Positions 2,645-60,127 of a stretch of DNA of 64,000 nucleotides are shown here, piece after piece. The first letter of the stretch is position 1; each line of letters begins with the position of its first letter. The notes under the pieces were generated by a model. That model had not been told where the DNA came from. It saw only the letters and a program-made list of their open reading frames with translations, and did no database searches. The DNA lies in assembly GCA_044347005.1 (NCBI GenBank), contig JBIIYD010000001.1:6158-70157 (forward strand), given 5' to 3'. This DNA comes from Flavobacteriales bacterium (GTDB lineage Bacteria; Bacteroidota; Bacteroidia; Flavobacteriales_F; PHOS-HE28). A program made the position numbers and the translations under genes.

Positions 2645-4522
2645 TTACTCCACCCGCTCCACCTTCTCCATCACATCCCCCACCTGTAACCGCCACACCA
2701 CGTCCATACCCTCCACCACCTCGCCGAAACGTGTGTAGCGACCATCCAGGTGCGGGGTGGCGCTGTGCGTGATGAAGAACTGGCAGCTCTCGGTATCCCT
2801 TCCGGCGGAAGCAAGGCCGATCGATCCCGCCGTGAACAGCTTGCGGCCGATCTCCGTGCGCAGGGTATAGGGCATGCCGCCATATCCATCGCCGCGCGGG
2901 CAACCACCCTGCACCACGAAGTTGGGCACCAGACGGTGGAAGGCCTTGCCGTTGTAGTAGCCTGCCGTTACGAGCGAATCGAAGGCGAGGCTGCTGCCTG
3001 GGCAGTCGTTGACATCGGTAGCGAGGATGACGGAGCCTTTAGTCGTGGTGATCCGGTAGCGCTGGCCCTGTGGAAGGGCTCGGAGCTTTTCCTTGTCGAT
3101 GGGGTGGTTGAAGGGTGGCGCTTGCTGGGTTGGCGGGGGAAGGCCATCGCGCTTTGCGGCCACGTTGGCCAGCAGGATCCGAGCCTCCAGATCACGAATG
3201 GGCAGAAGCGCGGACAAGGCCCAGGACTCCGTTTCCCGATCGAACAACAGACCGATGGCCTCGGGGTCTTCTTCCAAGAGCAGTTCGGCGGCGGCACAGA
3301 TCAGCCCTTCATCACGGGTGCGGATGGCACTGCGCACCACCTCGCCAAGTTGGCTGTACCGTGCCGCTGGATCGGCATAACGTGAACGCATCATGATCTC
3401 CCGAACGATGCGTACCGCACCTTGGAAGGCGGCCTGTTTCAGCGGAGCCGGTTCGCTGCTGCGCAGCACGAAGAGCAATCCCTGCAGCGTTTCGTCCCGC
3501 GGTGCCCGGGAGTAGGAACCGAGTACTTCGGCACGTTGGTAGGTCGAAAGTTTTCCGGCGACCAATCGCTCCATGGCCACGCCGGCCTTCCCAGCCATGT
3601 CTTCATCGCCGTGCTGCATGGCAAGACCAAGCAACGCGATCCGTGTGTTGGTGTCGGCCACTTGGGTTTCCCACCTCAGGCACCGGTCGGCATCCAGATC
3701 GGATCGTTGTTGAAGGAAGTCCATGGCGACCGTGGACATTGCAGGGTCGGACAGGGCGTGCAACAGCAGTTCCTGGTCGCTCACCGCATCCCAAGCAACA
3801 AGGACGCGCAACGCATTCACCCGCTCCGCGTATGCACCTGTCCCCAAGGCGATCGCACGCAACTCCGGTGTGTTCGCCAGTGGATCAAGGTGCTTCATGA
3901 TGAGCAGGAGCAGTGCACGCACTTCGGCGTCCCCGCTCCGCATCAGTTCTTGTAGTTCGGTGGTCCATCCGGCGAAGGTGGTGTCCGGCAAGCGCCGTAA
4001 CGCATCCGCAGCTCTTGCCCGGTCCTGCCCGCTGCTGCTTTGCAGGAAGTGGATGATGGCCTGCGGGTCCTTCAGCATCCCCTTGCGCTGCATGGCCAGG
4101 AAGGAAGCACTGAGGTAGGCGCGTTGCACAGTGCTGTCGCGTTCATTGATCGCCAATTCGGCCATGCGTTCGATGGTGAGGCTGTCCGCCACAAAGCCCA
4201 GCGCGAAGACAGCGGCTGCGCGCACATTCGCGGAGGTATCTCCCAACGCACCCATCAGACAAGGGATCCCCGAGGTGTCCTGCACACTGGCGAATGCAAG
4301 CGCTGCCGCATCGCGCACTTCTGATGCCTCGTGCTTCAGCAGCGCGCAGAGCGCATCGGTATCGCGGTGTTCCTGGGCCTCAAGTATGGGCCAAAGGCGT
4401 TCATCGGCCCAGCGGTTGGGTGGAGCTTCGGGTGTACCTGGTCCTGGAACCTCGCACGCTGCAAGGAATGCAAAACCCAATACGAGGATGATGTAGCGTA
4501 TCACCCCACGAAGATCATTCAT
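2645..4522 (-). CDS. HEAT/PBS-lyase repeat protein fused to a C-terminal cyclophilin-type peptidyl-prolyl isomerase domain
   Basis: 625 aa. Signal-peptide-like N-terminus and repeated helical HEAT-like units. The C-terminus carries FHRLVPNFVVQGGCP...GSIGLASAGRDTESCQFFITH, a cyclophilin signature. Confidence 0.75.
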   Translation of the reverse strand: MNDLRGVIRYIILVLGFAFLAACEVPGPGTPEAPPNRWADERLWPILEAQEHRDTDALCALLKHEASEVRDAAALAFASVQDTSGIPCLMGALGDTSANVRAAAVFALGFVADSLTIERMAELAINERDSTVQRAYLSASFLAMQRKGMLKDPQAIIHFLQSSSGQDRARAADALRRLPDTTFAGWTTELQELMRSGDAEVRALLLLIMKHLDPLANTPELRAIALGTGAYAERVNALRVLVAWDAVSDQELLLHALSDPAMSTVAMDFLQQRSDLDADRCLRWETQVADTNTRIALLGLAMQHGDEDMAGKAGVAMERLVAGKLSTYQRAEVLGSYSRAPRDETLQGLLFVLRSSEPAPLKQAAFQGAVRIVREIMMRSRYADPAARYSQLGEVVRSAIRTRDEGLICAAAELLLEEDPEAIGLLFDRETESWALSALLPIRDLEARILLANVAAKRDGLPPPTQQAPPFNHPIDKEKLRALPQGQRYRITTTKGSVILATDVNDCPGSSLAFDSLVTAGYYNGKAFHRLVPNFVVQGGCPRGDGYGGMPYTLRTEIGRKLFTAGSIGLASAGRDTESCQFFITHSATPHLDGRYTRFGEVVEGMDVVWRLQVGDVMEKVERVE

Positions 4523-4635: not shown

Positions 4636-4860
4636 CTACCGCCCGACCCCGAAATCCACCGCCCGGTAACGCATGAACACCCATGTGAAGTCCCACCCAT
4701 GATAGCGCAGCGCCCCCAGCAATACCATCGTGGCCGTGGCCTCATCGATGTTGCCGAATAGCGGGATGTTGTCCGGGAGGAACTCGAACACACCAAAGGT
4801 GGGATTGAGCAGGTACAAGAGGGCCAGCAGGCCGGCGAGGGTGACGAGAAGGGGCTTCAT
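4636..4860 (-). CDS. Small DUF1232-family (YkvA-like) membrane protein
   Basis: 74 aa from an internal Met of the long ORF (MKPLLVTLAGLLALL...FLPDNIPLFGNIDEATATMVLLGAL). The PDxIP..G..DD-like motif is typical of DUF1232. Confidence 0.5.
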   Translation of the reverse strand: MKPLLVTLAGLLALLYLLNPTFGVFEFLPDNIPLFGNIDEATATMVLLGALRYHGWDFTWVFMRYRAVDFGVGR

Positions 4861-5029
4861 GGTGCAGGTCGTTGTTCGGAGATCGATGGTCGTTGGTCGG
4901 GGCCTGGTGCCACTTACCCAAGTGAGTGAAGCGTTGGTGCCCTGTGGGTTCAAGCGTGGCGTCATTGTCGTGTCATACGCAACGCGACAGAGGTACCCGA
5001 AGGTATGGAGCGGGGTAACTTCGCCGCCC

Positions 5030-17822: not shown

Positions 17823-19022
17823 ATGCCAATGCGCTACCTGCTGCCTGCGCTGCTCTTGTGGGCCTGTACCAACGGAGGCGCGGCACGTCCGCAAGAGGCG
17901 GAGGCCACGGCGCCCACGGAGCGCTACCGGCTGGAGGCGGCGGACCTACGCGTTTGGCGCACGGTGGATACCACGGAGGCAGAAGCCCGGGCGGATTTGG
18001 CCTGCCTGCGGCGCTTCTTCGTGAACAAGCTGGACAGCGGCGCAGCGCAGGACTTCTGGTGGCGGCCGGATGTGGAGCTCTACGTGCGGCCCTATGAGGA
18101 CCTGCTGTACACCGAGTACGACAGCGAGGCGCGCCTGCGCTACCTGCCCACGCTGATGGAGCGGCGCCCGTTGCCCGATGGCACCCGGCTGCTGCGCGTG
18201 AAGTGGGCCGCCCCGGACAGCACGGGCAGGGCGGAGGAGGTTCGGCAGGTCTTCGACTTCCTTGCGCGCGACACGCCCGAGGGCACGCGCCTGGCGATGC
18301 CGCTGGCGTGGAACACCGCCACATGGCCGCGGCACCAGGTGGGACCGATCGGCTACATCGTGTCCCCCGAGCGGCGTTTCGACCCTGCCGTGGCCCGTGC
18401 GCAGGAGCAGGACGTGGAGGCGCTGGGGCGCTTCTTCGGCATCTCGCCCTTCCCCCTTACGTACTACAGCTTCAAGGACCCGGCGGACCTGTTCCGGGCG
18501 CGGGGCTTCCTGGTACACCCGGCGATGTACGCGCACGCCACGGGCGGTCGGCTGGACCATGGTGGGCAGGTGTACGCGGGCAACAACAGCGAACGCTACA
18601 CCCACGAGATCGTACACGCCTTCATTTTCCGCAGCCTGGGCCGCAAGGGCATGGACCTGCTGCACGAAGGACTGGCCACCTGGCTGGGTGGCAGCAACGA
18701 GCACCCCTATGCCTGGCACCGCGCACAACTGCAGCGCATGCTGGCCGAGCAACCCGACCGTGACCTGCGACAGGACCTGAACGTGTACAACAGCGACTAT
18801 TACGCGGACGAGACCAACGTGGCCTACACCATTGGCGCCTTGGTGGTGGAGCACATCCTGCGCACGGCGGGTAAGGAGGCCCTCTTCGCGCTCTTCGCCG
18901 AGGAACACACGGACCTGAGCGCCTTGGAACAGCACGGCATCCGCGAGGTGGAGATCAATGGGTGGGTGCGGGCGGCGCTGGCGAAGGAGGCGTTGCGATC
19001 AGATGATCAGAAAATGAGATGA
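17823..19022 (+). CDS. Putative secreted/lipoprotein zinc metallopeptidase-like protein (HExxH)
   Basis: Signal peptide LLPALLLWACTNG. HEIVH motif (YTHEIVHAF). Confidence 0.55.
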   Translation: MPMRYLLPALLLWACTNGGAARPQEAEATAPTERYRLEAADLRVWRTVDTTEAEARADLACLRRFFVNKLDSGAAQDFWWRPDVELYVRPYEDLLYTEYDSEARLRYLPTLMERRPLPDGTRLLRVKWAAPDSTGRAEEVRQVFDFLARDTPEGTRLAMPLAWNTATWPRHQVGPIGYIVSPERRFDPAVARAQEQDVEALGRFFGISPFPLTYYSFKDPADLFRARGFLVHPAMYAHATGGRLDHGGQVYAGNNSERYTHEIVHAFIFRSLGRKGMDLLHEGLATWLGGSNEHPYAWHRAQLQRMLAEQPDRDLRQDLNVYNSDYYADETNVAYTIGALVVEHILRTAGKEALFALFAEEHTDLSALEQHGIREVEINGWVRAALAKEALRSDDQKMR

Positions 19023-19131
19023 TCAGAAAATGGCGCTGGGCGATGCAGTGCCTGTAGGCTACGCACCACCCCCGACCGAAGCGCGCATTCGATCTTCTGA
19101 TCATCTGATCATCTCATTTTCTGATCCTCTC
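18997..19131. repeat. ~130-bp imperfect inverted repeat built from GATCAGATGATCAGAAAATGAGATGATCAG units
   Basis: Left arm gatcagatgatcagaaaatgagatgatcagaaaatg. Right arm cattcgatcttctgatcatctgatcatctcattttctgatc. Directly precedes the PIN toxin gene. Confidence 0.75.
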
Positions 19132-19143
19132 AGGATCGCCCCC

Positions 19144-22835: not shown

Positions 22836-22970
22836 GAGTGGCGAGTGGCGAGTGCTCGGCCCGATGGGCCATCGCAGCGAGTGGCGAGTAAATGCCCCTT
22901 ACCGGCGCTTATCGCCTGGGGCATTTACTCGCTACTCGCCCACTCGTCACTCGCCACTCTCTCCCCTACC
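22836..22970. repeat. ~135-nt imperfect palindrome composed of CGAGTGG / CCACTCG heptamer repeats with a central hairpin
   Basis: gagtggcgagtggcgagtg...gcgagtggcgagtaaatgcccc | ttaccggcgcttatcgcct | ggggcatttactcgctactcgcccactcgtcactcgccactc. Lies in the divergent uvrC-lpxD promoter region. Confidence 0.75.
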
Positions 22971-22991: not shown

Positions 22992-24011
22992 ATGCAATTC
23001 ACCGCTACCCAGATCGCGCAACTCCTCCATGGCACCGTGGAAGGCGATCCCAACGCAACCGTAAACAAGCTCTCGAAGATCGAGGAGGGTGGCGAAGGCT
23101 CCCTGTCCTTCCTCGCCAACCCCGCTTACACGCAGTACGTGTACGGGACCACCGCCAGCGTGGTGATCATCGGGCAGGCCTTCGAACTGACGGCCCCGGT
23201 GAAGACCACCTTGGTGCGCGTGGCCGATGCTCAGGGCGCTTTCGCGAAGGTGCTGGCCATGTACAACACCATCAAACTGGACAAGAAGGGCATCTCGCCC
23301 CAAGCGGTCATTGAGGACAGTGCGACCTACGGGAAGGACTGCTACATCGGCGCGTTGGCCTACATCGGTGCGAATGCGAAGCTGGGCAACAATGTGAAGA
23401 TCTACCCACACGCCTATATCGGTGACAACGTGACCATCGGCGACAACACCACCGTGTTCGCCAACGTGACGATCTATTCGGATTGTGTGGTGGGCGCCAA
23501 CTGCATCATCCACAGCGGCACGGTGATCGGCAGCGATGGCTTCCGCTTTGCCACAGGCCCCAATGCAGCGGAGAAGATCCCGCAGATCGGCAACGTGGTG
23601 ATCGAGGACGATGTGGAGATCGGTGCCAACTGCGCCATCGATCGCGCCACGCTCGGCAGCACCATCCTGCGGCGTGGTGTCAAGTTCGATAACCTGATCC
23701 ACATCGCACACAACGTGGAGGTGGGCGAGAACACCTACTACGCGGCAGGCGGCGTGGTGGCCGGCAGCACCAAGATCGGGAAGAACTGCATGTTCAGCGG
23801 GCAGGTGGGCATCATCGGTCACCTGAAGATCGCCGATGGTACCATCATCGCGGCGCAGAGCGGGATCAGCAAGGACACCAAGCCCGGCGAGGCTTACATG
23901 GGTTCGCCAGCATGGGAGGCCAGCAAGTACCGCAAGAGCTACATCCACTTCCGCAACCTGGACCGCATCGTGGATCGGTTGGACAAGCTGGAGAAGAGCG
24001 TGAAGGGCTGA
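22992..24011 (+). CDS. lpxD: UDP-3-O-acylglucosamine N-acyltransferase
   Basis: Left-handed beta-helix hexapeptide repeats and LpxD N-terminal domain (MQFTATQIAQLLHGTVEGD). Confidence 0.9.
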   Translation: MQFTATQIAQLLHGTVEGDPNATVNKLSKIEEGGEGSLSFLANPAYTQYVYGTTASVVIIGQAFELTAPVKTTLVRVADAQGAFAKVLAMYNTIKLDKKGISPQAVIEDSATYGKDCYIGALAYIGANAKLGNNVKIYPHAYIGDNVTIGDNTTVFANVTIYSDCVVGANCIIHSGTVIGSDGFRFATGPNAAEKIPQIGNVVIEDDVEIGANCAIDRATLGSTILRRGVKFDNLIHIAHNVEVGENTYYAAGGVVAGSTKIGKNCMFSGQVGIIGHLKIADGTIIAAQSGISKDTKPGEAYMGSPAWEASKYRKSYIHFRNLDRIVDRLDKLEKSVKG

Positions 24012-27263: not shown

Positions 27264-27983
27264 ATGTCAAATGTAATCAAGCGCGGTACTTCCAAGCAAT
27301 GCTGGCCGGCGATGCTGCTGGCCCTTTGCATGTGCGCTTCGTCCACGATGCTACAGGCCCAGGCCCCGGCAGGGGGTAAGCGGCCCTTGGTGGAAGTGCG
27401 TACCGAGGTGGGAACACTGGTGATCGCCCTGCACAACGAAACACCCGTGCACCGCGACAACTTCCTGAAGCTGGTGCGGGAAGGCGCATACGACGGATTG
27501 CTCTTTCACCGTGTGATGCAAGGCTTCATGGTACAAGGCGGCGACCCCGATAGCCGGGAACCCGCCGCAGGGGCCATGCTGGGTACCGGCGATCCCGGCT
27601 ACACCTTGCCGGCCGAGATCGTGCCCGGCCTGGTGCACACCCGTGGAAGCGTGGCCGCTGCCCGGCAGGGCGATAGCGTGAACCCGGACAAGCGGTCCAA
27701 CGGCATGCAGTTCTACATCGTACTGGGACGCACTTACGAAAAGGAGGACCTTGACCGCATGGTACAGCGCGCCCTGCAATACGGCGATACCGTGGTGTAC
27801 ACCGAGGCCAATGTGAACGACTACGCGCGTGAGGGCGGAGCGCCACAACTCGATGGGGCCTATACCGTATTCGGCGAAGTGGTCGACGGTCACGAAGTGA
27901 TCGATGCACTGGCCGCCGTGGCCTGCAACGCGCAGGACCGCCCCTTGAAAGACATACGAATGTTCATGCGCATCTTGGAATGA
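27264..27983 (+). CDS. Cyclophilin-type peptidyl-prolyl cis-trans isomerase (secreted)
   Basis: FHRVMQGFMVQGGDP and signal peptide. Confidence 0.85.
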   Translation: MSNVIKRGTSKQCWPAMLLALCMCASSTMLQAQAPAGGKRPLVEVRTEVGTLVIALHNETPVHRDNFLKLVREGAYDGLLFHRVMQGFMVQGGDPDSREPAAGAMLGTGDPGYTLPAEIVPGLVHTRGSVAAARQGDSVNPDKRSNGMQFYIVLGRTYEKEDLDRMVQRALQYGDTVVYTEANVNDYAREGGAPQLDGAYTVFGEVVDGHEVIDALAAVACNAQDRPLKDIRMFMRILE

Positions 27984-29044
27984 GCTTGTTGGAACGCATC
28001 GAGGCACTGGAAGCGGAAGTCGCTGCCGCAACAGCCGGAAACCCGGAAGAGGTGGAACGCATCAGGTTGGCCCTGCTGGGGCGCAACGGCTCCATCACGG
28101 CCTTGTTCGAGGATTTCAAGCAAGTGCCACCGGAGCAGAAGCGCGCCCTGGGGCAACGCATGAACGTGCTGAAGCAAGCCGCGCAGGGCCGGGTGGACGA
28201 GCTGAAAGCCGCTGCCGACCAAGGTGGTGCCAACGGATCCGGACCGTCCCTGGACGGCAGCATGCCCGGCATAACGAGCCACACCGGCAGCCTGCATCCG
28301 ATCACCATCGTGCGGCAACGCATCGTGGAGATCTTCGCACGCATCGGTTACACGGTGAGCCAGGGTCCCGAGGTGGAGGACGACCACCACAACTTCAGCG
28401 CGCTCAACTTCCCCCCGGACCACCCTGCCCGCGACATGCAGGACACGTTCTTCGTTCGCTCGAACAACGACGAACGAACAACGAACAACGAACAACTCGC
28501 CCTCCGCACCCACACCAGCAGCGTGCAGGTCCGTGTGATGGAAAGCGGCAAGCCACCCTTTCGCACCATCAGCCCGGGGCGCGTGTACCGCAACGAGGCC
28601 ATCAGTGCCCGTGCCCACTGCATGTTCCACCAGGTGGAAGCCCTGTACGTGGACAAGAACGTGAGCTTCGCCGAGTTGAAAGGAACGCTGGACTACTTTA
28701 CCAAGAGCCTCTTCGGACCGGAGGTATCGATCCGCATGCGGCCCAGCTACTTCCCGTTCACCGAACCCAGCGCCGAGGTGGACATGAGCTGCACCATCTG
28801 CGGCGGTCCCGGCTGCAACGTGTGCAAACACAGCGGCTGGGTGGAGATCATGGGCTGCGGCATGGTGGACCCGGCCGTGCTCTCCAACTGCGGCATCGAC
28901 CCCGATGTGTACAGTGGCTTCGCGCTCGGCATGGGCGTGGAACGTATCGCGCAATTGCTCTACCGGGTGCCCGACCTGCGGCTCTATTGGGAGAACGACG
29001 TTCGTTTCCTCGACCAGTTCACGGCCGGTACGTTCAGGAATTGA
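27980..29044 (+). CDS. pheS: Phenylalanine--tRNA ligase alpha subunit
   Basis: Class II motifs. Contains an unusual in-frame insertion SNNDERTTNNEQ encoded by ACGAACA repeats. Confidence 0.95.
   Translation: MSLLERIEALEAEVAAATAGNPEEVERIRLALLGRNGSITALFEDFKQVPPEQKRALGQRMNVLKQAAQGRVDELKAAADQGGANGSGPSLDGSMPGITSHTGSLHPITIVRQRIVEIFARIGYTVSQGPEVEDDHHNFSALNFPPDHPARDMQDTFFVRSNNDERTTNNEQLALRTHTSSVQVRVMESGKPPFRTISPGRVYRNEAISARAHCMFHQVEALYVDKNVSFAELKGTLDYFTKSLFGPEVSIRMRPSYFPFTEPSAEVDMSCTICGGPGCNVCKHSGWVEIMGCGMVDPAVLSNCGIDPDVYSGFALGMGVERIAQLLYRVPDLRLYWENDVRFLDQFTAGTFRN
28461..28496 (+). repeat. Heptanucleotide microsatellite (ACGAACA-like units) inside the pheS coding sequence
   Basis: cgaacaacgacgaacgaacaacgaacaacgaacaa. 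Confidence 0.8.
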
Positions 29045-38097: not shown

Positions 38098-38140
38098 GAC
38101 ATCTCCACATTTCGGAATTCTTCATCTCCACATCTCCATC
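38098..38140 (+). promoter_or_regulatory. Tandem CATCTCCACAT repeats immediately upstream of the marC start codon
   Basis: ggacatctccacatttcggaattcttcatctccacatctccatcATG. The same motif family occurs at 55747-55778 and 56286-56368. Confidence 0.5.
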
Positions 38141-49466: not shown

Positions 49467-51539
49467 CTAGGGTATCGGCCCATTGCCTTCGCCCATCATC
49501 ACCCTTCTCACCTCCACCTTGAGCCCTTCGAAGGAGAACGGTTTCCCACTGCGGTTCCACAAGTAGAGCTTATTGCGCACTTCATAGGGGTGGCGCAACA
49601 GCATCCAACGGAACTCGAACGGGCCTTCGACCAAGCGCTTGCCCTCATTGCTGATCTGGCCGTTCGCATCGTTCTCGGCGAGGATCAACAAACTTTCATC
49701 CGTAGCCAGGGCGCCGTCCATGTGGAACACGCCCCGTACGATGACCTCCGTGCGCAAAACCTGCTTACCATAAGCTGGCAGCTCGTCCATTTCCAGCGGG
49801 TATTCGCCACTGCCGAAACACCATCGGGCGGCACCCGCTCCCTCGCATGGAATGGTATCGACCCGAGCCTTCACCGCAGGGTGCAGCGGACTTCCTGCTG
49901 CGAGCACCAAGTCGTTCTCCTCGGTCTCGGGTCCCTTGTACAGGTCGTAGATGCGGACCCATTTGTGGCGAGTGATGGGACGATCCAAGTAGGGCTTCAC
50001 CACGGGGTCCTCCAGCCAGCGGTCCTCGGCGAACATGAGGTAACGTGCCCCCCGAGCAATGAGCCGTTCGAAGGTGGCGGGGTCGCTCCAGTCATTGCCA
50101 TAGTTGGTATAGCCCTTCCGGCCCATGAGGTACAACGACCCATTGATGGTGATGTCGTCGAGGAAGATGACCAGTTCGTCGCGACCGATGCCCAACGAGT
50201 CCAGCACCGGCCCCATGTCCAGCGTGCTCCGGATGCCATAATAGTCGGTCGCGCTCCAGAAGGGCAGCTCGTGCTCGTGGTAAAGGGGCAGGATCTTCTT
50301 GGTATCCACCGGCTCGAAGACCGTGTACCGCATGGTCATGTTGGTGGCCGCATACGCCACATTGAAGACCAGGAGCGCGCTGAAGGCCACCTTTAGCCAG
50401 CGTGCATGGAACAGGTCCGGATGATCGCGTCGCAACCACCAGAGGTAGGTGGCCCACAGCACCAGCAGTGCGATCATCGGGTTGATGAAGTAGTAGTCGT
50501 GGCTGTCCAGCGAATGGAACCACAGCAGGGTGTACGCCACCACGCCCAATAGAAGCAAGGCATTGAGCAGGGCCACCGGCCAGGGGAGGCGCCTTGCGTT
50601 GACCAGCAAGGCCACGAAGGCCACGCCCAGAGCGACCCACACCGAGGTGTCGAAGATCTGGAACACGAGGATCCGCTTGGCGAAGGTCCATGCGCGCTCC
50701 ACCTCTTCCGCCGTCATTTCCCAGATCGGCCAGATGTTGTTGAAGGTGTAGCGCCCGTTGTGTTCATTGTTGTACGCTTCGGCGTGGACGTACCAGGCCA
50801 GCACGGCCAGCAATGCAACGGCGATGGAGGACCAGCCCAGGCGCGGCGGAGGGAGCAGATCGCGGTACGAGCCAAAAGCCTTGGGCACCACGGTGGCCAG
50901 GGCCAGCATGGCCATGATCGCCACGAGGCTGATGCCGGCGCTGACCTTGAGCAAGGTGGCCAGGGCGAAGAAGGCCATGGCCCACAGCCACCAACGCCGC
51001 TGGTGCTCCTGCCCATAACGCACCAGGAAGTACCAGCCGATCAACACCAGGTCGAATGCGGGAACGTCCGTCAGGAACCCCACGCTGTAGTAAACCAGGA
51101 CCGGCGAAGTGAACAACAGCAGGGCCGTACAAAGCGCCCAGAAATCACTTTGCAGCAAGCGGCGCAGGGTGTGGAAGAAGGCCCAGGTGGCCATGAAGTG
51201 CAGCAGGATGCCGAACAGACGGTAGGCGAATTCGCTCTGCCCGGTGATCTTCCACACCTGGCCCATGGCCCAGTAGATCAAGGGGAATTCGCCTGCACTG
51301 TTGCCGGAGGTGCCGTCATCGCCGATGCGCGCATGGATCTCAGGCTCGAAAAAGCCACGGTCGCCAGTGTGGTAGTTCTCGGTAATGGAGAGGCAATCCG
51401 CCTGGCGCCAGAGGTGGTAGGGATAGGGTCGGGTATTCAGGATGCGGCCGCCTTCGTAGACCGAGAACATCAGGACGAACCCCAGCACGAGCATCCAGCC
51501 CGGGCCGATCCGTTGATGGAACGCGCGCAAGGTCCGCAT
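49467..51539 (-). CDS. Polytopic membrane protein (GT-C-like; paralogue of 43176-45029)
   Basis: N-terminal loop [15 protein letters not shown]-terminus ...[15 protein letters not shown]. Confidence 0.55.
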
Positions 51540-51550
51540 GGTCGCGCAGC

Positions 51551-52207
51551 TCAGAAACTCATTTCGGGAACGACCCCTTCCACCACCAACCTCCCTTCGG
51601 TCTTCGAAACGATCTCTTCAACACTGACCCCCGGTGCGCGTTCCAGCAGCTTGAAGCCCTCGGGGGTGATGTCGAAAACGCCGAGGTCGGTCACCACTTT
51701 CTTCACGCAACCCACACCGGTAAGGGGCAGCGAACAGCGCTTCAGCAGCTTGCTCTCGCCCGCCTTGTTGGCGTGCATCATAACCACGATGATGTTGTCG
51801 GCACTGGCCACCAGGTCCATGGCACCACCCATGCCCTTCACCATTTTGCCCGGGATCTTCCAGTTCGCGATGTCGCCGTTATCGGCCACCTCCATGGCAC
51901 CGAGCACGGTGAGTTGCACATGCTGCCCGCGGATCATGGCGAAGCTGGTGGCACTGTCGAAAATGCTGCTGCCGGGCAACAACGTCACGGTCTGTTTGCC
52001 GGCATTGATCAGGTCGGCATCCTCCTCCCCTTCCCACGGAAAGGGACCCATGCCCAGTATGCCGTTCTCGCTCTGCAGCACCACGTTGATGCCTTCGGGG
52101 ATGTAGTTGGCAACCAGGGTCGGTATGCCGATGCCGAGGTTCACGTAGTAGCCGTCCTTCAACTCGCGCGCAATGCGCCTGGCCATCTGGTCCTTGTCGA
52201 GTGCCAT
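51551..52207 (-). CDS. scoB: 3-oxoacid CoA-transferase subunit B
   Basis: GIGIPT...SENG (catalytic Glu context). Full length. Confidence 0.9.
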
Positions 52208-52210
52208 GAT

Positions 52211-53980
52211 CTATTCCTTCGCTTGGGTTTCCGGGGCGTTCCGTTGCAGGATGTGCAGGCGCGCCTTCTGCAAGGAAAGCGGCACCCGCGCTGGGTTCCA
52301 AATGTAGATCGCCACACGTTGCGCCTCCACCGGTATCGGCGGCAATACGTGGGTAATGCGCAAGGGCAGGCCCTGCCGCCCGCGTGGATACTGCCCGATC
52401 GACCGGGAACCGTAGTAGGCGTGTCCCATGTCCGCGTTGTTCACTTCCACGACCAGGAACGGACCTTCGGCAGGCCTTCGATCCAGCAGCAGCACCCCGC
52501 TGAGGTCGAACGAAAGCGCACGTCCCGTGAGTGTCGCGGTGGCCGGTAGCGGCAGTTCCCGGTATTCGGCATCGGAGGTGGCGAACGAAATGCTGGTATC
52601 CAGGACGGTCGTGGTGCTGTGCGCCGCATTGCGGACCATCAGGGTCAAGCCACCCGGACCTTCCAGCACGGTATGGAATCGTGTGGAAGCGTCATCGGCC
52701 TGCCACCGGGAAACCAGCAGCAGGTCCGCTTCTTCCAAGGCAATGTGGTCGGTCTGAAGGGTCGTCAGCGGCTCTTGGTCGAACAGGCGTCCGTATTCCC
52801 ACGAAGGCATTTGCCGCACTCCGCCTCCAACAACGAGGCCCCGCCCCGCCTGCTGTTGGCGAAGAAGCACCTCCGCTTCGAATTTCGGGGGTATGGCGCC
52901 ATCGCCCGAGGAACGGGTGGTACCCACATGGATCCCGAGCACCATGTGAAGCGCGGGAAGCAACAGCAACAGCGCCAGCCAACGGCGATGAGCGCCAGCA
53001 ACGATGGCCCGGTCCAACGCAAGGCCCCAGCCCAGCAGGAACAAGGGCAACCACGGAAGCGCGTCGTGGACCAGGTCAGTGGGTGCTTGGAAGGCGAAAT
53101 ACAACGAGGGCCACCCAACGAGCAATGCGAGCGTGGACAACAACACCGTGCGTGGCCCACCGCCGGAATACGGCCCCCCAACGAGCCCGAGCCATGCCAT
53201 GCAACCTAAGGACAGCACGAGCGACCATACAAGCCATTGTGCGTGTGTCGCAAAGACCAGGTCCATCCACGTTCGGAGCTTTTCGGCTACGTACCATTCG
53301 GCATCCGTGCCCTTCGCGTCGAAGCCCATGTGGAGCAACAGCCCGGAGAGGACCGCCACCAAGGCCCAGGTCCCCAGTCTTGTCCACCGATCGGCAGCAC
53401 CCGAACGAAGCACCACCACAAGCACCGCCAATTCGCCCACCAGCCACAAAGGCTGCATGGCCGTTGCGGAAAAAGCCACGGCCACGAAGGCGAGCGCGGC
53501 CCGGAGCACGTGACGCGAACCGGGTTCATGGGGTATGCGGCCCAGGTGCCAGAGCGCCATGAAGGTGAACGCCATGGCCAGTGACTGCCCGCCCGCCAGG
53601 GCGAACATTTCCACTGCAAAGGGCATGAGCAGGAGCGCGATCCACAGGCACCAGCGGAGCAGCACATCCTGCACGAGACCGCCCAAGCGGAAGGCATATC
53701 CGGCAAAGAGCACGAAGGCCAACAACGAGAGGACCCGCTGGGGGAACAGGGCCGGACCCACCAGCGCGGTGGAGACCATGGCCCACCAACCGGACAAAGG
53801 ATGGTCAATGGGCTGTACAGCGGGCTGTACCCAGGCGAAAAAGCGCAAGGCCTCCTCGTGGGTGATGGGTACCACGAATGCGCGCACCACCAGGTGAACG
53901 GCCATCAATGCTGCCAGCGCCGCGAAAAGCAGCGCCTGCATGCGTGTGGTCGGCTCCGTGGGCCTGAACGTGTCGGTCAT
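52211..53980 (-). CDS. Polytopic membrane protein (GT-C-like paralogue)
   Basis: Start taken at MTDTFRP, which overlaps the upstream stop by 4 nt. The long ORF extension upstream is likely spurious. Confidence 0.5.
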   Translation of the reverse strand: MTDTFRPTEPTTRMQALLFAALAALMAVHLVVRAFVVPITHEEALRFFAWVQPAVQPIDHPLSGWWAMVSTALVGPALFPQRVLSLLAFVLFAGYAFRLGGLVQDVLLRWCLWIALLLMPFAVEMFALAGGQSLAMAFTFMALWHLGRIPHEPGSRHVLRAALAFVAVAFSATAMQPLWLVGELAVLVVVLRSGAADRWTRLGTWALVAVLSGLLLHMGFDAKGTDAEWYVAEKLRTWMDLVFATHAQWLVWSLVLSLGCMAWLGLVGGPYSGGGPRTVLLSTLALLVGWPSLYFAFQAPTDLVHDALPWLPLFLLGWGLALDRAIVAGAHRRWLALLLLLPALHMVLGIHVGTTRSSGDGAIPPKFEAEVLLRQQQAGRGLVVGGGVRQMPSWEYGRLFDQEPLTTLQTDHIALEEADLLLVSRWQADDASTRFHTVLEGPGGLTLMVRNAAHSTTTVLDTSISFATSDAEYRELPLPATATLTGRALSFDLSGVLLLDRRPAEGPFLVVEVNNADMGHAYYGSRSIGQYPRGRQGLPLRITHVLPPIPVEAQRVAIYIWNPARVPLSLQKARLHILQRNAPETQAKE

Positions 53981-55806
53981 TCGTGGTCCGGGGTCAGGGT
54001 TTGTTTTCCGACACGCCCGTCGACCATGGCGATCGGTCGATGGTCGGGGTTCCAAAAGTAGAGGACGCGGGTGTCGGCATCGGGCACGGCAGGCATCCTC
54101 ACGAGCAAGCGCAGGCGCTCTCCGTTCCAGTGCGGTGAAATGCTCGCTATCCGGGTGGTGTGGTAGTGCAACAGTTCCTCGCCCAGCTTCTGCTCCACCA
54201 CCAGATGCAGATCGAGGAACGACGCACCCGAGGCCAGGGAACACTCCACGGTGAACAAGAAGTCGACGCTGCCATCCGACCCCTCCGAACGCCACAATTC
54301 CAGGAACTCGCGGTCGCTTTGGGCGAACGAGAACGTGGACCATTGCACGGGCCCGAGGACCAGCGGGGAAGCGCGTTCCAGCAGATGCAGGCCAGGACCG
54401 GGTGCAACGTCCACTTCGCGGTAGCCCACGAGCGCCTGCTCCAGAAAACGCTCGTCCACGATCCGGATGTCGGTAGGGGCGTTGGGAAAGCCTTGTGCAT
54501 CGGGTGGGTTCAGCACAACACCCTGCAGGCGTGCCGCGTAAGGCAGCGCCAAGGCGAGCTGGTGGTACGTGCCTATCGTAAGTGGTCGATCGACACCGGC
54601 CTGACGTTCACCGATCCACTGAACGAAGCGGGCGGGTACCGATTGTTCTGGCCATAGGACCGTATGGTCCAGGTTCGCCGTGATCACACTGCGAAAAGGC
54701 AGTACCAGCAGGATGGCCGCAGCCCAACGCCACCGTAGGTCGGTGCTGGCCAACGCATCCGCAGCGAATGCCAGGAGCAGGATGGCCAGAGGAAGCAAAT
54801 GGAGGGCGGCACGGTCCTCCGGGTAATTGACGCCAAGGACCAAGGCCATTCCGATGCGGCTGGCCACATCGGCCCAAAGCAGGAATGCGACCAACAACAA
54901 GGGCGTTCGCCATGTGCGGCCCACCAACAAGGCCATACTGGCCGCGATGACCGCCATGGCCGAAACGATGAGCAAGGCGGGGTGCAGGCCACCGAGCACG
55001 TACTTGGACAACGACGAAAGGGTCACCGCAACGAACCCGTCCAACGAGCCGTGGTACAGCAGCCCCCTACGCTTCATTTCCCACGAAAGCAGGATACCCA
55101 CGAGCAAGGGGAGCAAGCCCAACAGGACCCAAAGGATGAAGGAGCGAACAGGGAAGCGACCCGCGCTACGCCCGCGCCGTACGAGGTCGAAGGCCAGAAG
55201 CGCTACGACCATGGCCCACAGCGGCACCATGGAAAGCACGGCGAAGTCGGCCAGCGCGAGGCCGATCAGGATCCGTGCAAGATGCTTGTCCGATGGAAGA
55301 GCGCGATAGCGCAGCATACCATCCACCGCAAAGGCGAGAAAAGCCATGCCTAAACCATATCCACGGAACAGGGAAAAGAACTCGAGCAGGAAAGGACAAG
55401 CGAGCAAGGCCGACCACATGCACCAGCGCACGAGCCGGTCCTGCAACAGGAGGCCGACCCGGTACACCGACCATGCGTAAATGGGAAAGGCCAATACACT
55501 GCCCACCCTTGAACCAAAGAGCGAAAGCCCCCAGAACTTGTACCCCAGCACCCCGATGGCCGAACTCAGGAAGTGGTTGCCGGCGTCCCAGAGCGCCACG
55601 TAGGGTAGAAAAGTCCCTCGCTCAAGGAACCAATAGAGCGAAGTGCTTTCGTCATGCACCCAAGGGACAAGTGCTGCACGCAGAATGACGTAAGTCCATA
55701 TGACCGAGGCAATGGTTACGAACGCCTTTCGTTCACCGGAACTTCCAATGTGGAAATGAACGGATGTGGAGATGTGGGCTGCCGACACGCGATCTGCGAG
55801 GTTCAC
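53977..55806 (-). CDS. Polytopic membrane protein (GT-C-like paralogue); N-terminal ~20 codons overlap a repeat and may not be coding
   Basis: Hydrophobic multi-TM ORF. C-terminus ...VLYFWNPDHRP resembles the KLYLWN paralogues. Confidence 0.45.
   Translation of the reverse strand: MNLADRVSAAHISTSVHFHIGSSGERKAFVTIASVIWTYVILRAALVPWVHDESTSLYWFLERGTFLPYVALWDAGNHFLSSAIGVLGYKFWGLSLFGSRVGSVLAFPIYAWSVYRVGLLLQDRLVRWCMWSALLACPFLLEFFSLFRGYGLGMAFLAFAVDGMLRYRALPSDKHLARILIGLALADFAVLSMVPLWAMVVALLAFDLVRRGRSAGRFPVRSFILWVLLGLLPLLVGILLSWEMKRRGLLYHGSLDGFVAVTLSSLSKYVLGGLHPALLIVSAMAVIAASMALLVGRTWRTPLLLVAFLLWADVASRIGMALVLGVNYPEDRAALHLLPLAILLLAFAADALASTDLRWRWAAAILLVLPFRSVITANLDHTVLWPEQSVPARFVQWIGERQAGVDRPLTIGTYHQLALALPYAARLQGVVLNPPDAQGFPNAPTDIRIVDERFLEQALVGYREVDVAPGPGLHLLERASPLVLGPVQWSTFSFAQSDREFLELWRSEGSDGSVDFLFTVECSLASGASFLDLHLVVEQKLGEELLHYHTTRIASISPHWNGERLRLLVRMPAVPDADTRVLYFWNPDHRPIAMVDGRVGKQTLTPDHE
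55747..55778. repeat. Inverted copy of the CCACATCTCCACAT motif (left arm flanking the four-helix-bundle gene)
   Basis: aatgtggaaatgaacggatgtggagatgtggg is the reverse complement of cccacatctccacatccgttcatttccacatt. It matches sequence at 56286-56350. Confidence 0.7.
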
Positions 55807-56216
55807 TGGACCTTGTTCATACGCGCCTTGATGATGATGCTTGCAAGGATGTTCCGGATGCTCTGTAGGTCCTCCAGCATTCCTTCCTCATAAGGAAGCT
55901 CATCCGCGTACTTGCATAGTTTTAGCCAGAACCGTGTTTCGCTGGCTTCCTTGGCGGAGACCTTCATCTTGTGGATGAAGTCATCGCGACTCTCCGCATC
56001 CTGGGCCTCATGCACATTGGCTCCGATGGATGTGCCGCATTTGAAGAGTTGCCGCGAAGCATCATACCAGCCCGAATCACGCAAGCCTTTGCTGAAGCGG
56101 ACCACACGTAGTGCGAATTCAAAACTCTTGTCAACGATCAAATTGCCAGTGGTCCGGTCAAAACCATATTCCGCAGGTCCTTCTTGAAATTCCCAAGTAT
56201 CCTGGTTGTTGTCCAT
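55803..56216 (-). CDS. Four-helix-bundle protein (TIGR02436 / '23S rRNA intervening-sequence protein', Avd-like family)
   Basis: FEFALRVVRFSKGL...CGTSIGANVHEAQDAES...SAKEASETRFWL matches the family pattern. Confidence 0.75.
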   Translation of the reverse strand: MDNNQDTWEFQEGPAEYGFDRTTGNLIVDKSFEFALRVVRFSKGLRDSGWYDASRQLFKCGTSIGANVHEAQDAESRDDFIHKMKVSAKEASETRFWLKLCKYADELPYEEGMLEDLQSIRNILASIIIKARMNKVQ

Positions 56217-56285
56217 CGGTCATGGTGTTGGTTGCTCATGGAACAGGACCCTGACCCACCCCGCGATCACCACCCTCTCCGGGAT

Positions 56286-56368
56286 CCCACATTTTCACAT
56301 CTCCACATCCCCCCTCATTTCCACATCCACCTCACATCTCCACATCCTCTCATCTTCACATCTTCTTC
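56286..56368. repeat. Array of ~6-8 pyrimidine-rich CACATCYC repeats (right arm) between scoA and the four-helix-bundle gene
   Basis: cccacattttcacatctccacatcccccctcatttccacatccacctcacatctccacatcctctcatcttcacatcttc. Confidence 0.75.
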
Positions 56369-57054
56369 CGTACCGTACGCTGTTCAATGCGCTTCTCGTA
56401 CTGCTCGCCTTGGAAGATCCGTTGCACGAAGATCCCTGGGGTATGGATCTCGTTCGGGTGCAATTCACCGGGCTCCACCAACTCCTCGACCTCGGCTACC
56501 GTGATGGTACCGGCCATGGCCATCATGGGGTTGAAGTTTCGGGCCGTGTCCTTGAACACGAGGTTGCCGAAGCGGTCCCCTTTCCATGCCTTCACCAAAG
56601 CGAAGTCTGCACGGAGCCATTGTTCCATCACGTACATCTTGCCGTGGAACTCGCGGGTCTCCTTGCCTTCGGCCACTTCGGTGCCATAGCCCGCAGGGGT
56701 GAAGAAGGCGGGAATGCCCGCACCTCCTGCACGGCATCGCTCGGCCAAGGTGCCTTGCGGGATCAGCTCCACTTCCAGCTCGCCGCTCAGCATCTGGCGT
56801 TCGAACTCGGCGTTCTCGCCCACGTAACTGCTGATCATCTTGCGGATCTGCTTCGTCTGCAGCAGCAGGCCCAGGCCGAAATCGTCCACACCCGCGTTGT
56901 TGCTGATGCACGTAAGCCCTTTCACGCCTTTACGCACCAGTGCGGCGATGCTGTTCTCCGGGATGCCGCACAGTCCAAAGCCCCCGACCATCAGCGTCAT
57001 GTTGTCCTGTATCCCTTCGAGCGCCACCTCGGCGTTGGCCACCACCTTGTTCAT
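56356..57054 (-). CDS. scoA: 3-oxoacid CoA-transferase subunit A
   Basis: [33 protein letters not shown]. Full-length subunit A. Confidence 0.9.
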
Positions 57055-57122
57055 TTCGATCGCGTTTTGAAGCGCGGCGAAGATAGGCGGCTGCAACAGG
57101 AGACCACAGGAGACGGCTGGGA

Positions 57123-59534
57123 CTAGTCCCAGTTCGGACTGCCGCTCGGGGCTGCGCCGCCCTTGGCCCGTTGGCGGCAATCGATGCTGGCCGGATCGAA
57201 GTCCTTCGGCTTTTCGAAGTCGCCGGTACTGATCTCGATGGTGGGGTCGGCGTAGACCTTGTTCATGTAGTAGCCGTAGATCGGCAAGGCCATGTTGGCG
57301 CCCTGTCCCTTGTCCGTGGAACTGAAACGCACACTTCGGTCATCGGCACCCGTCCACACCCCGGTGACCAGGTCCGGGGTTATGCCGATGAACCAACCGT
57401 CGGAGTTGTTCTGTGTGGTGCCGGTCTTGCCTGCCGTGGGGAACTTGATGTTGGCGTAGCGTTGCCTGCTACCCCAGCTGGTGCGTAGGCGCAGGCCGGT
57501 GCCCACCACCTTGCCGGTACTGGGGTTGTAGGCGCCATCGGTAACCCCTTTCAGCATCTTGAGCATGGTGTAGGCGGTAACCTCATCGAGCGCCTCGTAG
57601 GTCTTGGGCGACACATCGTAGATGGTGTTGCCGTTCTTGTCCTCGATCCGGGTAAAGACGATGGGTTCGATGAAGACCCCTTGGTTGGCGAACGAGGCGA
57701 AGGCCCCGGTCATCTCCATCAGCGTTAGGTCGGCCACGCCCAGACACAATGATGGAACGGCTTCAAGCGGACTCTTCACGCCCATGTGCCGGGCGAGAAC
57801 GGTGACCGCCTGTGGGCCGTACTGCTTCATGAGCCATGCCGTGATGGTGTTCATGGAATTGGCCAAGGCATACTCCACGGTGACCATGCCACCGTAAACC
57901 GCATCGCTGTTCTGGGGGCACCAGTCGGGCTGGCCCGGCGGCATTTCGAAGCACACCTTCTGGTTGGGCAGTTCGCGGCAGGGGTCCATGCCTTCGCGGA
58001 TGGCCGTGGCGTAGACGAAAGGCTTGAAGGTGGACCCCACTTGGCGACGCGCTTGCTCCACGTGGTCGTACTGGAAGTGCCGGAAGTCGATGCCGCCCAC
58101 CCAGGCTTTCACGAAGCCCGTGCGCGGGTCCATGCTCAACAGTCCGCTCTGCAGGAAGCTCTTGTAGTAGCGGATCGAATCCATCGGGCTCATCACCGTA
58201 TCCACCTCGCCCTTCCAGGTGAACACCCGCATTTTCGCGGGTTTCTCGAACTCCTTCGGGATGTCCTCCTCCTTCACGTAGGGCCAATAGTGGTCGCAGC
58301 CCCCTTTGTCCGGCCGGCAATGGTAGTGTTCCGATCCTTCGTGTTGGACGCGCTCGATATACCGCGCAGGGCGTTCACAGTTGCCGCACTGCTTGCCGGA
58401 AAGGATGCGGAAACGCACGCTTCGTTTCATGGCCGTGTTCAGGATGCCATCTATCTCCTCCTGGCTTACGCGGTGGTCGAAGGGCCTGTTCTTCTTCCGG
58501 GCGATGTCCTTGAAGAAGTCGGGCTGCAACTCCGAGGCCAGGTGCTCCTTCAGGCCCCATTCGCCGTACTGCTGCATGCGCCGGTCCAGCGTGGAATAGA
58601 TGCGCAGGCCATCGGTGTAGATGTCGTAGGGCGAGCCATCGGCCTTGGCGATCTTGTAATTGCCCTTGTCGTCCTTTTCGCTGAGGAGGGCTTGGAGCTT
58701 GGCACGCAGCACTTCGCGGAAGTAGGGTGCCGGTCCTTCGGTATGGTCCACACGCTGAAAACGCAGGCCCAGCGGCAGCACCTTCAAGGAATCGTATTCC
58801 GCCGTGGAAAGGAACCCGTTCTTGCGCATCTGGTCCAGCACCACCATGCGGCGGGTCATGGTGGTATCGGGCCTGCGCAAGGGGTTGAAGAGCGCCGGGT
58901 TCTTGCACATGCCCACCAGCATGGCCGCCTCTTCGATGCGCAACGAGTCGGGCGTGGTGTTGAAGTAGACCCGCGCCGCACTGTTGATACCCACCGCCTG
59001 GTTGATCCAGTCGAAGCGGTTGAGGTACATCGCGATGATCTCGTCCTTGGTGTACTGCCGTTCCAGTTTGGCGCTGATGATCCACTCCTGGAATTTCTGG
59101 AAGGTGCGTTTGATGAAGTTGGACGAGCGGTCCGTGAAAAGCATCTTGGACAGCTGCTGCGTGAGCGTGCTGGCCCCACCTTTCTTGCCTAAGAAGACCG
59201 CAGCACGCAAAGTGCCCCGGAGGTCTATGCCGCTATGTTCCCGGAAGCGCTCATCCTCGGTGGCGATCAAGGCGTTCACCACGTTCGGGCTGATGCGGTC
59301 GTAGGTGACGGGGATCCTGTTCTCGCGGTAGTACTGGCCCATCTGGCTGCCATCGCTGAAGAGCACGGCCGTAGCCAGATCACTGCGCGGATTCTCGAGG
59401 TCCTCGGTACCCGGCAGGTCGCTGTTGGCCGCAATGGTCAGCAGCAGGGCCATGGCCAGCACCGGTGACAACACCAGTCCCCACCACAACACATACCATT
59501 TGCGGGGCTTATTGCTCTGCTTGCGTTCGGCCAT
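57123..59534 (-). CDS. mrcA: Penicillin-binding protein 1A (bifunctional transglycosylase/transpeptidase)
   Basis: GT51 motifs ([20 protein letters not shown]). Transpeptidase SxxK/KTG context. Confidence 0.9.
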
Positions 59535-59650
59535 CGGGCGGTGAAATTACCGGTGCGGGCGGTGTTGCTGGTGTATGGTTCGGGTCTGCCTTATCAACAA
59601 CGGAGGATCCACTCGCTACAGCGATCCACAAGGCCCAGGAGAGTAAGCCC

Positions 59651-60127
59651 CTACTTGGACCTCTCGACGCTGACGCCGACATCGAGCACTCCGGCCAGTT
59701 CCTCCGTGCGCATGGCTTGTTCCAAGCGTACGGTATAACGCCCGGAAGCCGGGAACCTATTGCCCGACCGGTAGAGCACATGGGCTTGGTAACGGTCGGC
59801 GAAGATGAATCCGAGGCCTTTCCCGAACCACTTACCGGTAGGGTCCGCCAGTAGGCATTCGATCGTGTCGCGCATGTGGCGCCCGTCAGGGCCGTGCAGG
59901 TCCACGAACAGGAAGAGGTCGCTGAACGGGTACTCGCCGGTGTGCCGGATGTCGATGAACAGGTCGTGCTTGTTCACCGTATCCGTCATTTCGAAGGCGA
60001 ATTCGGGCTTGAATTCGCGGTTCCAAGCCGCTCCCTGCACCGGAACATCGGCTTGGAAGACCACATTGTCCGCACAGCTGGAGAACAGGCACGCGATCCC
60101 GATCGCACCGACTTGGATCCCTTTCAC
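59651..60127 (-). CDS. gldH: Gliding motility lipoprotein GldH
   Basis: Lipobox LFSSC. Family-typical length. Conserved position downstream of the PSP1 gene and upstream of PBP1A. Confidence 0.75.
   Translation of the reverse strand: MKGIQVGAIGIACLFSSCADNVVFQADVPVQGAAWNREFKPEFAFEMTDTVNKHDLFIDIRHTGEYPFSDLFLFVDLHGPDGRHMRDTIECLLADPTGKWFGKGLGFIFADRYQAHVLYRSGNRFPASGRYTVRLEQAMRTEELAGVLDVGVSVERSK

Follow-up and report, generated by a model that had tools for sequence, protein, structure and literature searches.

Directly behind scoA, in DNA from a Flavobacteriales bacterium (GenBank assembly GCA_044347005.1, contig JBIIYD010000001.1), a gene for a small four-helix-bundle protein stands between two inverted arrays of short tandem repeats. 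What kind of element is this unit, and how does it come to lie within an operon? The sequence analysed was a stretch of 64 kb with 61.4% G+C, which we call the window throughout. A preliminary description of it had suggested a miniature mobile element or a regulatory module, with a possible relation to diversity-generating retroelements (DGRs). We favour another answer, to which we assign a probability of roughly 0.55: positions 55747-56363 form a four-helix-bundle gene cassette of the type found in rRNA intervening sequences (IVS), placed here in an mRNA operon, with arms that likely pair and loop out the gene. The same packaging recurs in relatives and points to a widespread class of dispensable gene cassettes, which is apparently undescribed.

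The cassette and its inverted arrays

The four-helix-bundle gene (S23p / TIGR02436 / PF05635; 55803-56216, minus strand, 137 aa) had been recognized in the preliminary description, and profile searches bore this out, with scores of 62.3 bits for PF05635 (cutoff 33.8, E 5.8e-17) and of 75.4 bits for the TIGR02436 model, 'four helix bundle protein' (cutoff 24, E 3.6e-21). An AF2 model of the protein (pLDDT 87.1) contains four helices within residues 26-133 and leaves residues 1-25 without secondary structure, residues 1-17 having a pLDDT below 50; this N-terminal extension of 25 residues is common only to the closest orthologues. The closest structure is that of the non-DGR protein BT_0352 (PDB 2RLD, an entry with five chains), which was found by sequence (E 1.7e-20, 42% identity) as well as with Foldseek (TM 0.90, rmsd 1.5), followed in the latter by 2GSC and then by Avd (4DWL, TM 0.77), with a further Avd entry, 8UB7, also matched. 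Judged from the profiles and the model, the protein is a predicted four-helix bundle and a member of the TIGR02436/PF05635 family. One search returned 753 relatives, and a scan of GTDB at least 600. To our knowledge, no function has been assigned to the family apart from that of Avd in DGRs.

All genes around the cassette are on the minus strand, and in the sense orientation the cassette opens with a 5' array of about nine tandem 8-nt units (56286-56363), followed by a leader of 69 nt, as read from the sequence, up to the ATG of the gene (56217-56285), the gene itself, a spacer of 24 nt behind its stop codon (55779-55802), and the 3' arm CCCACATCTCCACATCCGTTCATTTCCACATT (55747-55778). The sense units of the 5' array conform to RRATGWGR, for example AGATGTGA AGATGAGA GGATGTGG AGATGTGA, running from 56363 down to 56286, and reverse-complementing its outermost four units gives the 3' arm. 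The first unit of the 5' array is formed by the final codon of scoA together with the stop codon (ATG TGA, 56356-56361), and the arrays at both ends occupy the entire spacer from the scoA stop to the next gene.

Inverted arrays bracket the four-helix-bundle gene, as the preliminary description had stated for 55747-55778 and the 5' array, and this was confirmed by repeat pairs, shuffles and shifted controls. The repeat search yielded four direct 16-nt copies at 56295-56363, and 55747-55781 takes part in inverted pairs, among them one of 34 nt at 82% and a perfect one of 15 nt (55762-55776 with 56296-56310 and also with 56333-56347). The sequence GGATGTGGAGATGTG, with up to three mismatches allowed, occurs 16 times in the window, where 2.2 occurrences are expected and none of 100 shuffles reached 16; six of the 16 fall in the cassette locus. 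The inverted-repeat alignment score of the flanks is 39, compared to 24 for the 99th percentile of pseudo-genes shifted along the sequence. For the two arms, a duplex energy of -55.9 kcal/mol was obtained, against -32.8 +/- 4.0 kcal/mol for shuffled arms (z = -5.7), and in a 651-nt RNA both the minimum free energy fold and the centroid fold close a long-range stem in which the 3' arm is paired with 56333-56363. A reading of the G-rich 5' array as a G-quadruplex was also considered but does not hold as a general explanation, since the units of most relatives are A/T-rich.

Packaging, placement and history in relatives

To see the cassette in its wider family, 80 loci were fetched from GTDB genomes, with relatives 39-60% identical among the matches listed; the window's own genome was not among the GTDB matches listed. 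The sampled loci are mostly from Bacteroidota, and Cyanobacteria, Clostridia, Ignavibacteria and others are represented as well, again among the matches listed. In the 120 nt on each side of the open reading frame (ORF), exact inverted repeats of as much as 32 nt are shared, compared to 6-8 nt in shuffled sequence, and the gapped flank score exceeds the 99th percentile of shifted pseudo-genes in 53 of 74 loci (Mann-Whitney p = 1.6e-29). The arms are tandem arrays, with a median length of 32 nt or about four units, built of 8-nt units such as AATTTGAA, GATGTGGA, AATGTGCA, AGTGTGGT, TTAGCTGA and others, or in some loci of the 7-nt units GACAGTT, TTGACAA and AATTGTG. Heptamer units are also used by the cassettes of Nostoc, Richelia and Oscillospiraceae, a Nostoc plasmid copy being flanked by (TTCAAAA)4 and (TTTTGAA)4. 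The density of arrays with a period of 7, 8, 14 or 16 next to four-helix-bundle genes (111 in 29.6 kb of flanks) is about 18 times that found elsewhere (148 in 694.5 kb). Packaging in inverted arrays is a family-wide signature.

The units are largely specific to the locus, even where the proteins are about 50% identical. The median score is 34 between cognate arms and 17 between non-cognate ones, and in 25 of 76 loci no other arm scores as high as the cognate one. One locus (L045) has two cassettes 1.3 kb apart with different units, the second gene (120 aa, 3320-3762) being divergent and having an array pair of its own. Three peculiarities of individual cassettes were recorded in addition: a further, directly oriented copy of the 5' array immediately behind the stop codon in L013 (5331-5500), followed by an ORF-less spacer and the inverted arm; an AATAATG array of 26 copies in L088 (3554-3736); and Nostoc arms that are C/A-rich on the upstream side, a polarity opposite to that in Bacteroidota.

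The placement of the relatives is as regular as their packaging. The gene is co-directional with both neighbours in 61 of 74 loci, with spacers of about 50 nt, and both neighbours are on the opposite strand in only two of the 74. The genes on either side form functionally linked pairs, with junction gene names read off the sequences except for scoA and scoB: the junctions scoA|scoB (12 loci), thiolase|acyl-CoA dehydrogenase (four), sdhA|sdhB (three) and hmgA|hppD (three) recur, as do enoyl-CoA hydratase|hydroxyacyl-CoA dehydrogenase and the positions after pyrB and after accB (accB|accC), with two loci each. Carriers with the cassette between scoA and scoB include the cultivable Flavobacterium cheonanense JCM 17069 (L017) and Salegentibacter holothuriorum DSM 23405 (L026), as well as Ulvibacterium marinum (L042). 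The outer edge of the 5' arm is found at a median of 2 nt past the upstream stop codon and the end of the 3' arm at a median of 10 nt ahead of the downstream start, so that the cassette makes up the entire spacer. In Chryseobacterium pennipullorum (L054, 1058-2535), arrays of the AATTTGAA type and an ORF-less hairpin were seen before and after a PaaB-like ORF downstream of a PaaA-like one, both as read from the sequence; a single genome can thus have such hairpins at several of its operon junctions.

In the window, the host operon begins upstream with scoA (3-oxoacid CoA-transferase subunit A, 56356-57054; PF01144 E 1.4e-79, TIGR02429 E 5.3e-84), which is called as a 232-aa form in L003 and is itself preceded by a PBP1A gene (57123-59534). 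Its partner scoB (3-oxoacid CoA-transferase subunit B, 51551-52207; TIGR02428 E 3.4e-99) forms the distal end of the interrupted pair. The position between scoA and scoB given in the preliminary description holds insofar as the cassette adjoins scoA directly; on the other side, two membrane-protein ORFs separate it from scoB. These are a 609-aa ORF (53977-55806), with no Pfam or NCBIfam match, and a second, paralogous ORF (52211-53980, 589 aa as called in L001), with no Pfam match. Two such paralogous genes for membrane proteins of about 600 aa sit between scoA and scoB in the window's clade, and proteins related to them, encoded at 49467-51539, match PMT_2. The 609-aa ORF lacks an ATG and can begin in frame only at a GTG overlapping the stop codon of the four-helix-bundle gene (GTGA), so that it reads through the 3' arm, which would then encode its N-terminus. 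An ATGA or GTGA stop-start overlap is present in L171 and L173 as well; the true start of this ORF is uncertain from the sequence.

The scoA junction has been occupied, emptied and scarred in different relatives. An identical protein is encoded on seven metagenome contigs in the same context, with the same arrays and in the same orientation, and the orthologues in L171, L007, L172, L009 and L173 (94%, 77%, 76%, 69% and 68% identical, respectively) all follow scoA and have arms of the ATGTG/CACAT type. Compared to the window, L171 has a 5' array shorter by about 44 nt, an unchanged 3' arm and the conserved 24-nt spacer, and in L172 the cassette is followed directly by scoB, without a membrane-protein gene. 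In a metagenome scan with scoA (80 loci, 77-94% identity), scoA and scoB were directly adjacent in 39 loci, mostly with a gap of 0-10 nt, the arrangement scoA-four-helix-bundle gene, with or without scoB following, was present in nine, and ten had one or more membrane-protein genes between scoA and scoB without a cassette; the junction was unresolved in 18 and ran into contig ends in four. Empty sites also exist in the window's own clade (L092-L096, L098, L101), where a membrane-protein homologue directly follows scoA after 5-20 nt and arrays are absent. At filled sites scoA ends in ATG TGA, in the empty relatives in GGC TGA or GGG TGA. The comparison of filled, empty and intact scoA-scoB junctions that the preliminary description had proposed thus returned both empty and intact sites.

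In the closest relative, L091 (scoA 94%, PBP1A 86% identical), the ORF and the 5' array are gone, and the 3' spacer and the 3' arm are kept; this retained arm is best read as the scar of a loss. About 265 nt of other repeat-rich sequence (4697-4960), with the inverted repeat CCCTTCGACTCCGCTCAGGG / CCCTGAGCGGAGTCGAAGGG, replaces the cassette gene in L091, and a 24-nt piece of the replacement is also inserted in the retained arm. At the same junction, L108 carries a frame-broken remnant of 293 nt with arrays, and L129 and L132 have ORF-less hairpins of 89-111 nt at scoA|scoB. The cassette, being present, absent, scarred or decayed at one and the same junction, is dispensable. Filled and empty junctions are interspersed in a tree of scoA. 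The cassette proteins at scoA|scoB are not one clade in a neighbour-joining tree, which is too weakly resolved to tell one insertion from several. From these sequence comparisons, the cassette is old at the scoA site and has been lost repeatedly in relatives.

Further arrays were noticed elsewhere in the window. At 18992-19135, ORF-less inverted 8-nt arrays of another unit (GATGATCA GAAAATGA ... / ... TCATTTTC TGATCATC), with arms about 57 nt apart, begin at the stop codon of an ORF at 17823-19022. At 22836-22970, an ORF-less hairpin of 7-nt units ((GAGTGGC)n ... GCGAGTAAATGCCCC / GGGGCATTTACTCGC ... CACTCGC) with an 18-nt loop stands between an ORF ending near 22775 on the minus strand and an ORF starting near 22992 on the plus strand. 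About five tandem CGAACAA heptamers lie within a pheS-like ORF (27980-29044) at 28461-28496 and are translated as ...SNNDERTTNNEQ..., apparently an in-frame tandem-repeat insertion in a housekeeping gene. The unit of the cassette arms itself recurs at a solo site on the plus strand (38098-38135), where two direct copies of CATCTCCACAT stop 6 nt short of the start codon (ATG) of a MarC-family gene (PF01914, E 4.5e-35) and no four-helix-bundle gene is present; this geometry matches the arrangement of heptamers before start codons described in PMC4679880. ORF-less inverted arrays also turn up in other sampled loci. As a broader class, such hairpins may be what is left of decayed cassettes or may be elements in their own right.

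The favoured mechanism and its rivals

In the mechanism that we favour, the cassette would be co-transcribed with scoA, because neither a sigma-70-like promoter nor an intrinsic terminator was found between the two (minus strand, 55600-57200), the sigma-70 consensus being uninformative for promoters of the Bacteroidota type. In the transcript, the arrays would pair to form a long imperfect stem with the four-helix-bundle ORF looped out, and this stem could shorten the distance from the scoA stop to the downstream start, restoring a tight stop-start geometry. By analogy with the IVS of Coxiella and Leptospira, the stem would be a substrate of RNase III, a step that could let the host RNA tolerate the insertion and could regulate how the enclosed gene is expressed. 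Arms made of tandem repeats would be able to grow and shrink by slippage and to pair in several registers.

Several points weigh against this mechanism. The fold of the entire 651-nt region barely beats shuffles (z = -1.64). Within the window's clade, the arms of different orthologues are interchangeable and therefore give no fine-scale compensatory signal. An excess of G-U wobble pairs was sought in 53 loci, with 58 G-U-compatible against 82 A-C mismatches found (p = 0.05 in the opposite direction); the test is weak because the units are heterogeneous and the register is ambiguous. Selection of arm pairing at the RNA rather than the DNA level finds no support in these sequences, and an action of RNase III on the cassette stem in this organism is suggested by analogy only. 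The ORF-less arrays at 18992-19135 and 22836-22970 mean that arrays are not exclusive to the four-helix-bundle gene, and the role of the arrays may be independent of that gene.

Foremost among the rival explanations, though still unlikely in our estimation, is a mobile element at the DNA level, with the arrays as terminal or subterminal repeats for an enzyme acting in trans or for the four-helix-bundle protein, and with the hairpins as derivatives resembling miniature inverted-repeat transposable elements (MITEs). On this view the unit would enter operon spacers by cut-and-paste or by copying. Inverted arrays of short subterminal repeats are a typical transposase-binding architecture, as in Ac/Ds and En/Spm. 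The recurrence of the package in 53 of 74 loci, the many different junctions occupied, the terminal inverted repeats, presence and absence of the unit among close relatives with empty sites, the scar in L091, the remnant in L108, the ORF-less hairpins of L129 and L132, and the failure of the scoA|scoB occupants to form one clade in the weak neighbour-joining tree all fit such an element, and to this extent the preliminary description was right. They also do away with the plain operator array lacking copies and empty sites that it had set against its own proposal, because a recurrent package, empty sites, a scar and remnants were found. Mobility of the ORF of IVS was proposed by Ralph and McClelland, as cited in PMC4990558.

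Several observations speak against mobility at the DNA level. No transposase, integrase or recombinase is encoded within about 14 kb, and a tblastn search for the additional copies expected in the preliminary description returned only the gene itself in the 64-kb window. A 5-nt GGAAG is found near both outer edges of the cassette, the empty sites being too diverged to define a target, and no convincing target-site duplication was found at the edges. The units differ between most array sites of one genome, as in the window (18992-19135, 22836-22970) and in L045, which makes a single sequence-specific enzyme unlikely; the solo site at 38098-38135, with the unit of the cassette, is the exception. 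The site is stable over orthologues that are 68-94% identical, leaving recent transposition unsupported, and a DNA transposon would have no need for the strict co-orientation with the host operon. Identical genes on three plasmids of Nostoc flagelliforme CCNUN1 (L176-L178) were considered as a case of recent transposition and rejected, because these copies share a plasmid backbone and have the same neighbours.

Rather improbable is a role of the arrays as protein-binding sites in the manner of TRAP or HutP, at which the pentameric ring of the four-helix-bundle protein or a post-transcriptional regulator of the host would exert auto- or operon regulation. S23p of Xanthomonas campestris (Xcc0516, PDB 2GSC) is a homopentameric toroid, as cited in PMC4990558, 2RLD has five chains, the homologue Avd acts in a nucleoprotein complex (4DWL and 8UB7 in the Foldseek search), and arms of about four units would suit such a partner. 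In Beggiatoaceae, Cyanobacteria and Bacteroidetes, tandem heptamers just before start codons have been suggested to serve as sites for a regulator (PMC4679880), and the solo site at 38098-38135 has that geometry. The divergence of the units, between loci with proteins about 50% identical as well as between most sites of one genome, is difficult to reconcile with such binding, and one RNA-binding specificity cannot cover both arms because in RNA the 3' arm is the complement of the motif and not the motif itself.

We consider it improbable that the arrays are a neutral by-product, in which slippage makes the units, template switching keeps the quasi-palindrome symmetrical, and the gene merely sits where hairpins accumulate. 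Tandem heptamers are the commonest intergenic repeats of prokaryotes and have no known role (PMC6344855), the copy number changes fast (L171 compared to the window), the wobble signature is lacking, and ORF-less arrays occur in other spacers, with one array inside the pheS-like ORF. A by-product would not, however, be expected to be enriched about 18-fold at four-helix-bundle flanks, to have edges that coincide precisely with the flanking stop and start codons, or to persist as paired arms from Bacteroidota to Cyanobacteria and Clostridia, and the equivalent stem in rRNA IVS has an experimentally shown role (PMC4990558).

An inverton, with the inverted repeats as recombination sites for flipping the gene, is very improbable. 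The repeats do bracket the entire small gene. Invertons are common in Bacteroidota. Such an element is at odds with the 61 of 74 loci that are co-directional with both neighbours and the mere two that are opposite to both, with the seven contigs of this species, which all have the same orientation, and with the lack of a recombinase nearby.

That the gene is a remnant or accessory gene of a DGR, the link drawn in the preliminary description from the resemblance of PF05635 to Avd (PMC10053308) and met again in the Foldseek match to 4DWL, can be dismissed for the window as next to impossible, because within about 14 kb there is neither a reverse transcriptase (Pfam scan of 41-64 kb and gene tables of L001 and L007) nor a pair of template and variable repeats (the only direct repeat of at least 40 nt in 40000-64000 being the two halves of an ABC ATPase), the window holds no second copy of the gene, and the closest structure is the non-DGR protein BT_0352. 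PADLOC and PHROGs returned no match.

Comparison with known systems

The protein family, the IVS of rRNA and intergenic tandem heptamers (PMC4679880, PMC6344855) are already known. We found no published link of TIGR02436/PF05635 genes to flanking inverted arrays outside rRNA, and no account of the placement at operon junctions or of the series of empty, scarred and decayed sites, with the reservation that subscription journals were poorly covered and an earlier description is possible. With this packaging, a defined gene is now linked to intergenic tandem heptamers and octamers, and the family gains concrete biology that can be tested: processing by RNase III, effects on how the flanking genes are coupled, and the acquisition and loss of the unit. 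There are consequences for annotation as well: the arrays may be taken for CRISPR-like ones, and they cause the starts of adjacent genes to be mis-set. A figure legend of the FLSHclust paper (PMC10910872) names '23S rRNA IVP' among domains tied to CRISPR arrays or adaptation modules, a link that may reflect flanking tandem arrays picked up by CRISPR finders.

More tentatively, and with less confidence than we have in the cassette model for the window, S23p cassettes might be widespread, unrecognised selfish intervening sequences of operons and rRNA alike, which settle at stop-start junctions of co-translated subunit genes, are made harmless by a stem through which RNase III or terminating ribosomes bypass them, spread from genome to genome by recombination in the conserved flanking genes, and decay into the STRR-like intergenic hairpins of tandem heptamers or octamers, for which neither origin nor function has been explained since 1990.

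Among the systems to which the cassette can be compared, Avd of DGRs shares the homologous four-helix-bundle fold (PMC10053308), but no reverse transcriptase or template/variable repeat is found near the window's gene. REP/BIME hairpins and MITEs are similar in being inverted repeats of operon spacers, with ORF-less versions and with presence or absence between relatives; the cassette differs from them in the lack of a shared genome consensus, in arms that are tandem arrays, and in an enclosed gene that is not a transposase. The cyanobacterial STRR and the TAACTGA heptamers of Beggiatoaceae, Cyanobacteria and Bacteroidetes likewise consist of 7-8-nt tandem units in spacers and often end before a start codon (PMC4679880, PMC6344855), and in a survey of 7006 genomes tandem heptamers were the most abundant prokaryotic intergenic repeats, with a function to which there was no clear clue (PMC6344855). 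Those heptamers have been described as arrays in direct orientation that share a single unit throughout a genome and enclose no gene, whereas the arrays of the cassettes are inverted pairs of mostly locus-specific units around a four-helix-bundle gene. Free-standing TIGR02436/PF05635 genes (BT_0352, Xcc0516) are close in the protein itself (42% identity and TM 0.90 to 2RLD), and the window's subfamily is set apart from them by the 25-residue N-terminal extension, which is predicted to be disordered.

The closest parallel is the IVS of 23S rRNA. That of Coxiella burnetii contains an S23p ORF co-oriented with the rRNA and has a terminal stem of 28 bp, with tandem GACAGAT heptamers before the ATG whose copy number varies between strains; its stem is cleaved by RNase III in vitro, with the ends mapped by rapid amplification of cDNA ends (RACE), and Leptospira is similar (PMC4990558). 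The cassette differs as follows: its host RNA is the protein-coding operon scoA ... scoB, for which an Rfam search of 50000-60000 gave nothing at the gathering score and, up to E = 1, only a sub-threshold ribosomal-protein leader, and the window's arms consist nearly entirely of 8-nt units, with edges on the flanking stop and start codons. Common to both are a protein of the same family encoded in the loop, an ORF that runs in the same direction as the host transcript, inverted repeats at the ends that can fold into a long stem around it, short tandem repeats next to the ORF with a varying copy number (here L171 compared to the window), an overall size of about 430-620 nt, and a dispensable, patchy occurrence. 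The cassette is taken to work like an IVS because every sequence feature except the host RNA is common to the two, and this shared packaging connects the very large PF05635/TIGR02436 family to the long-known ORF-bearing intervening sequences of rRNA.

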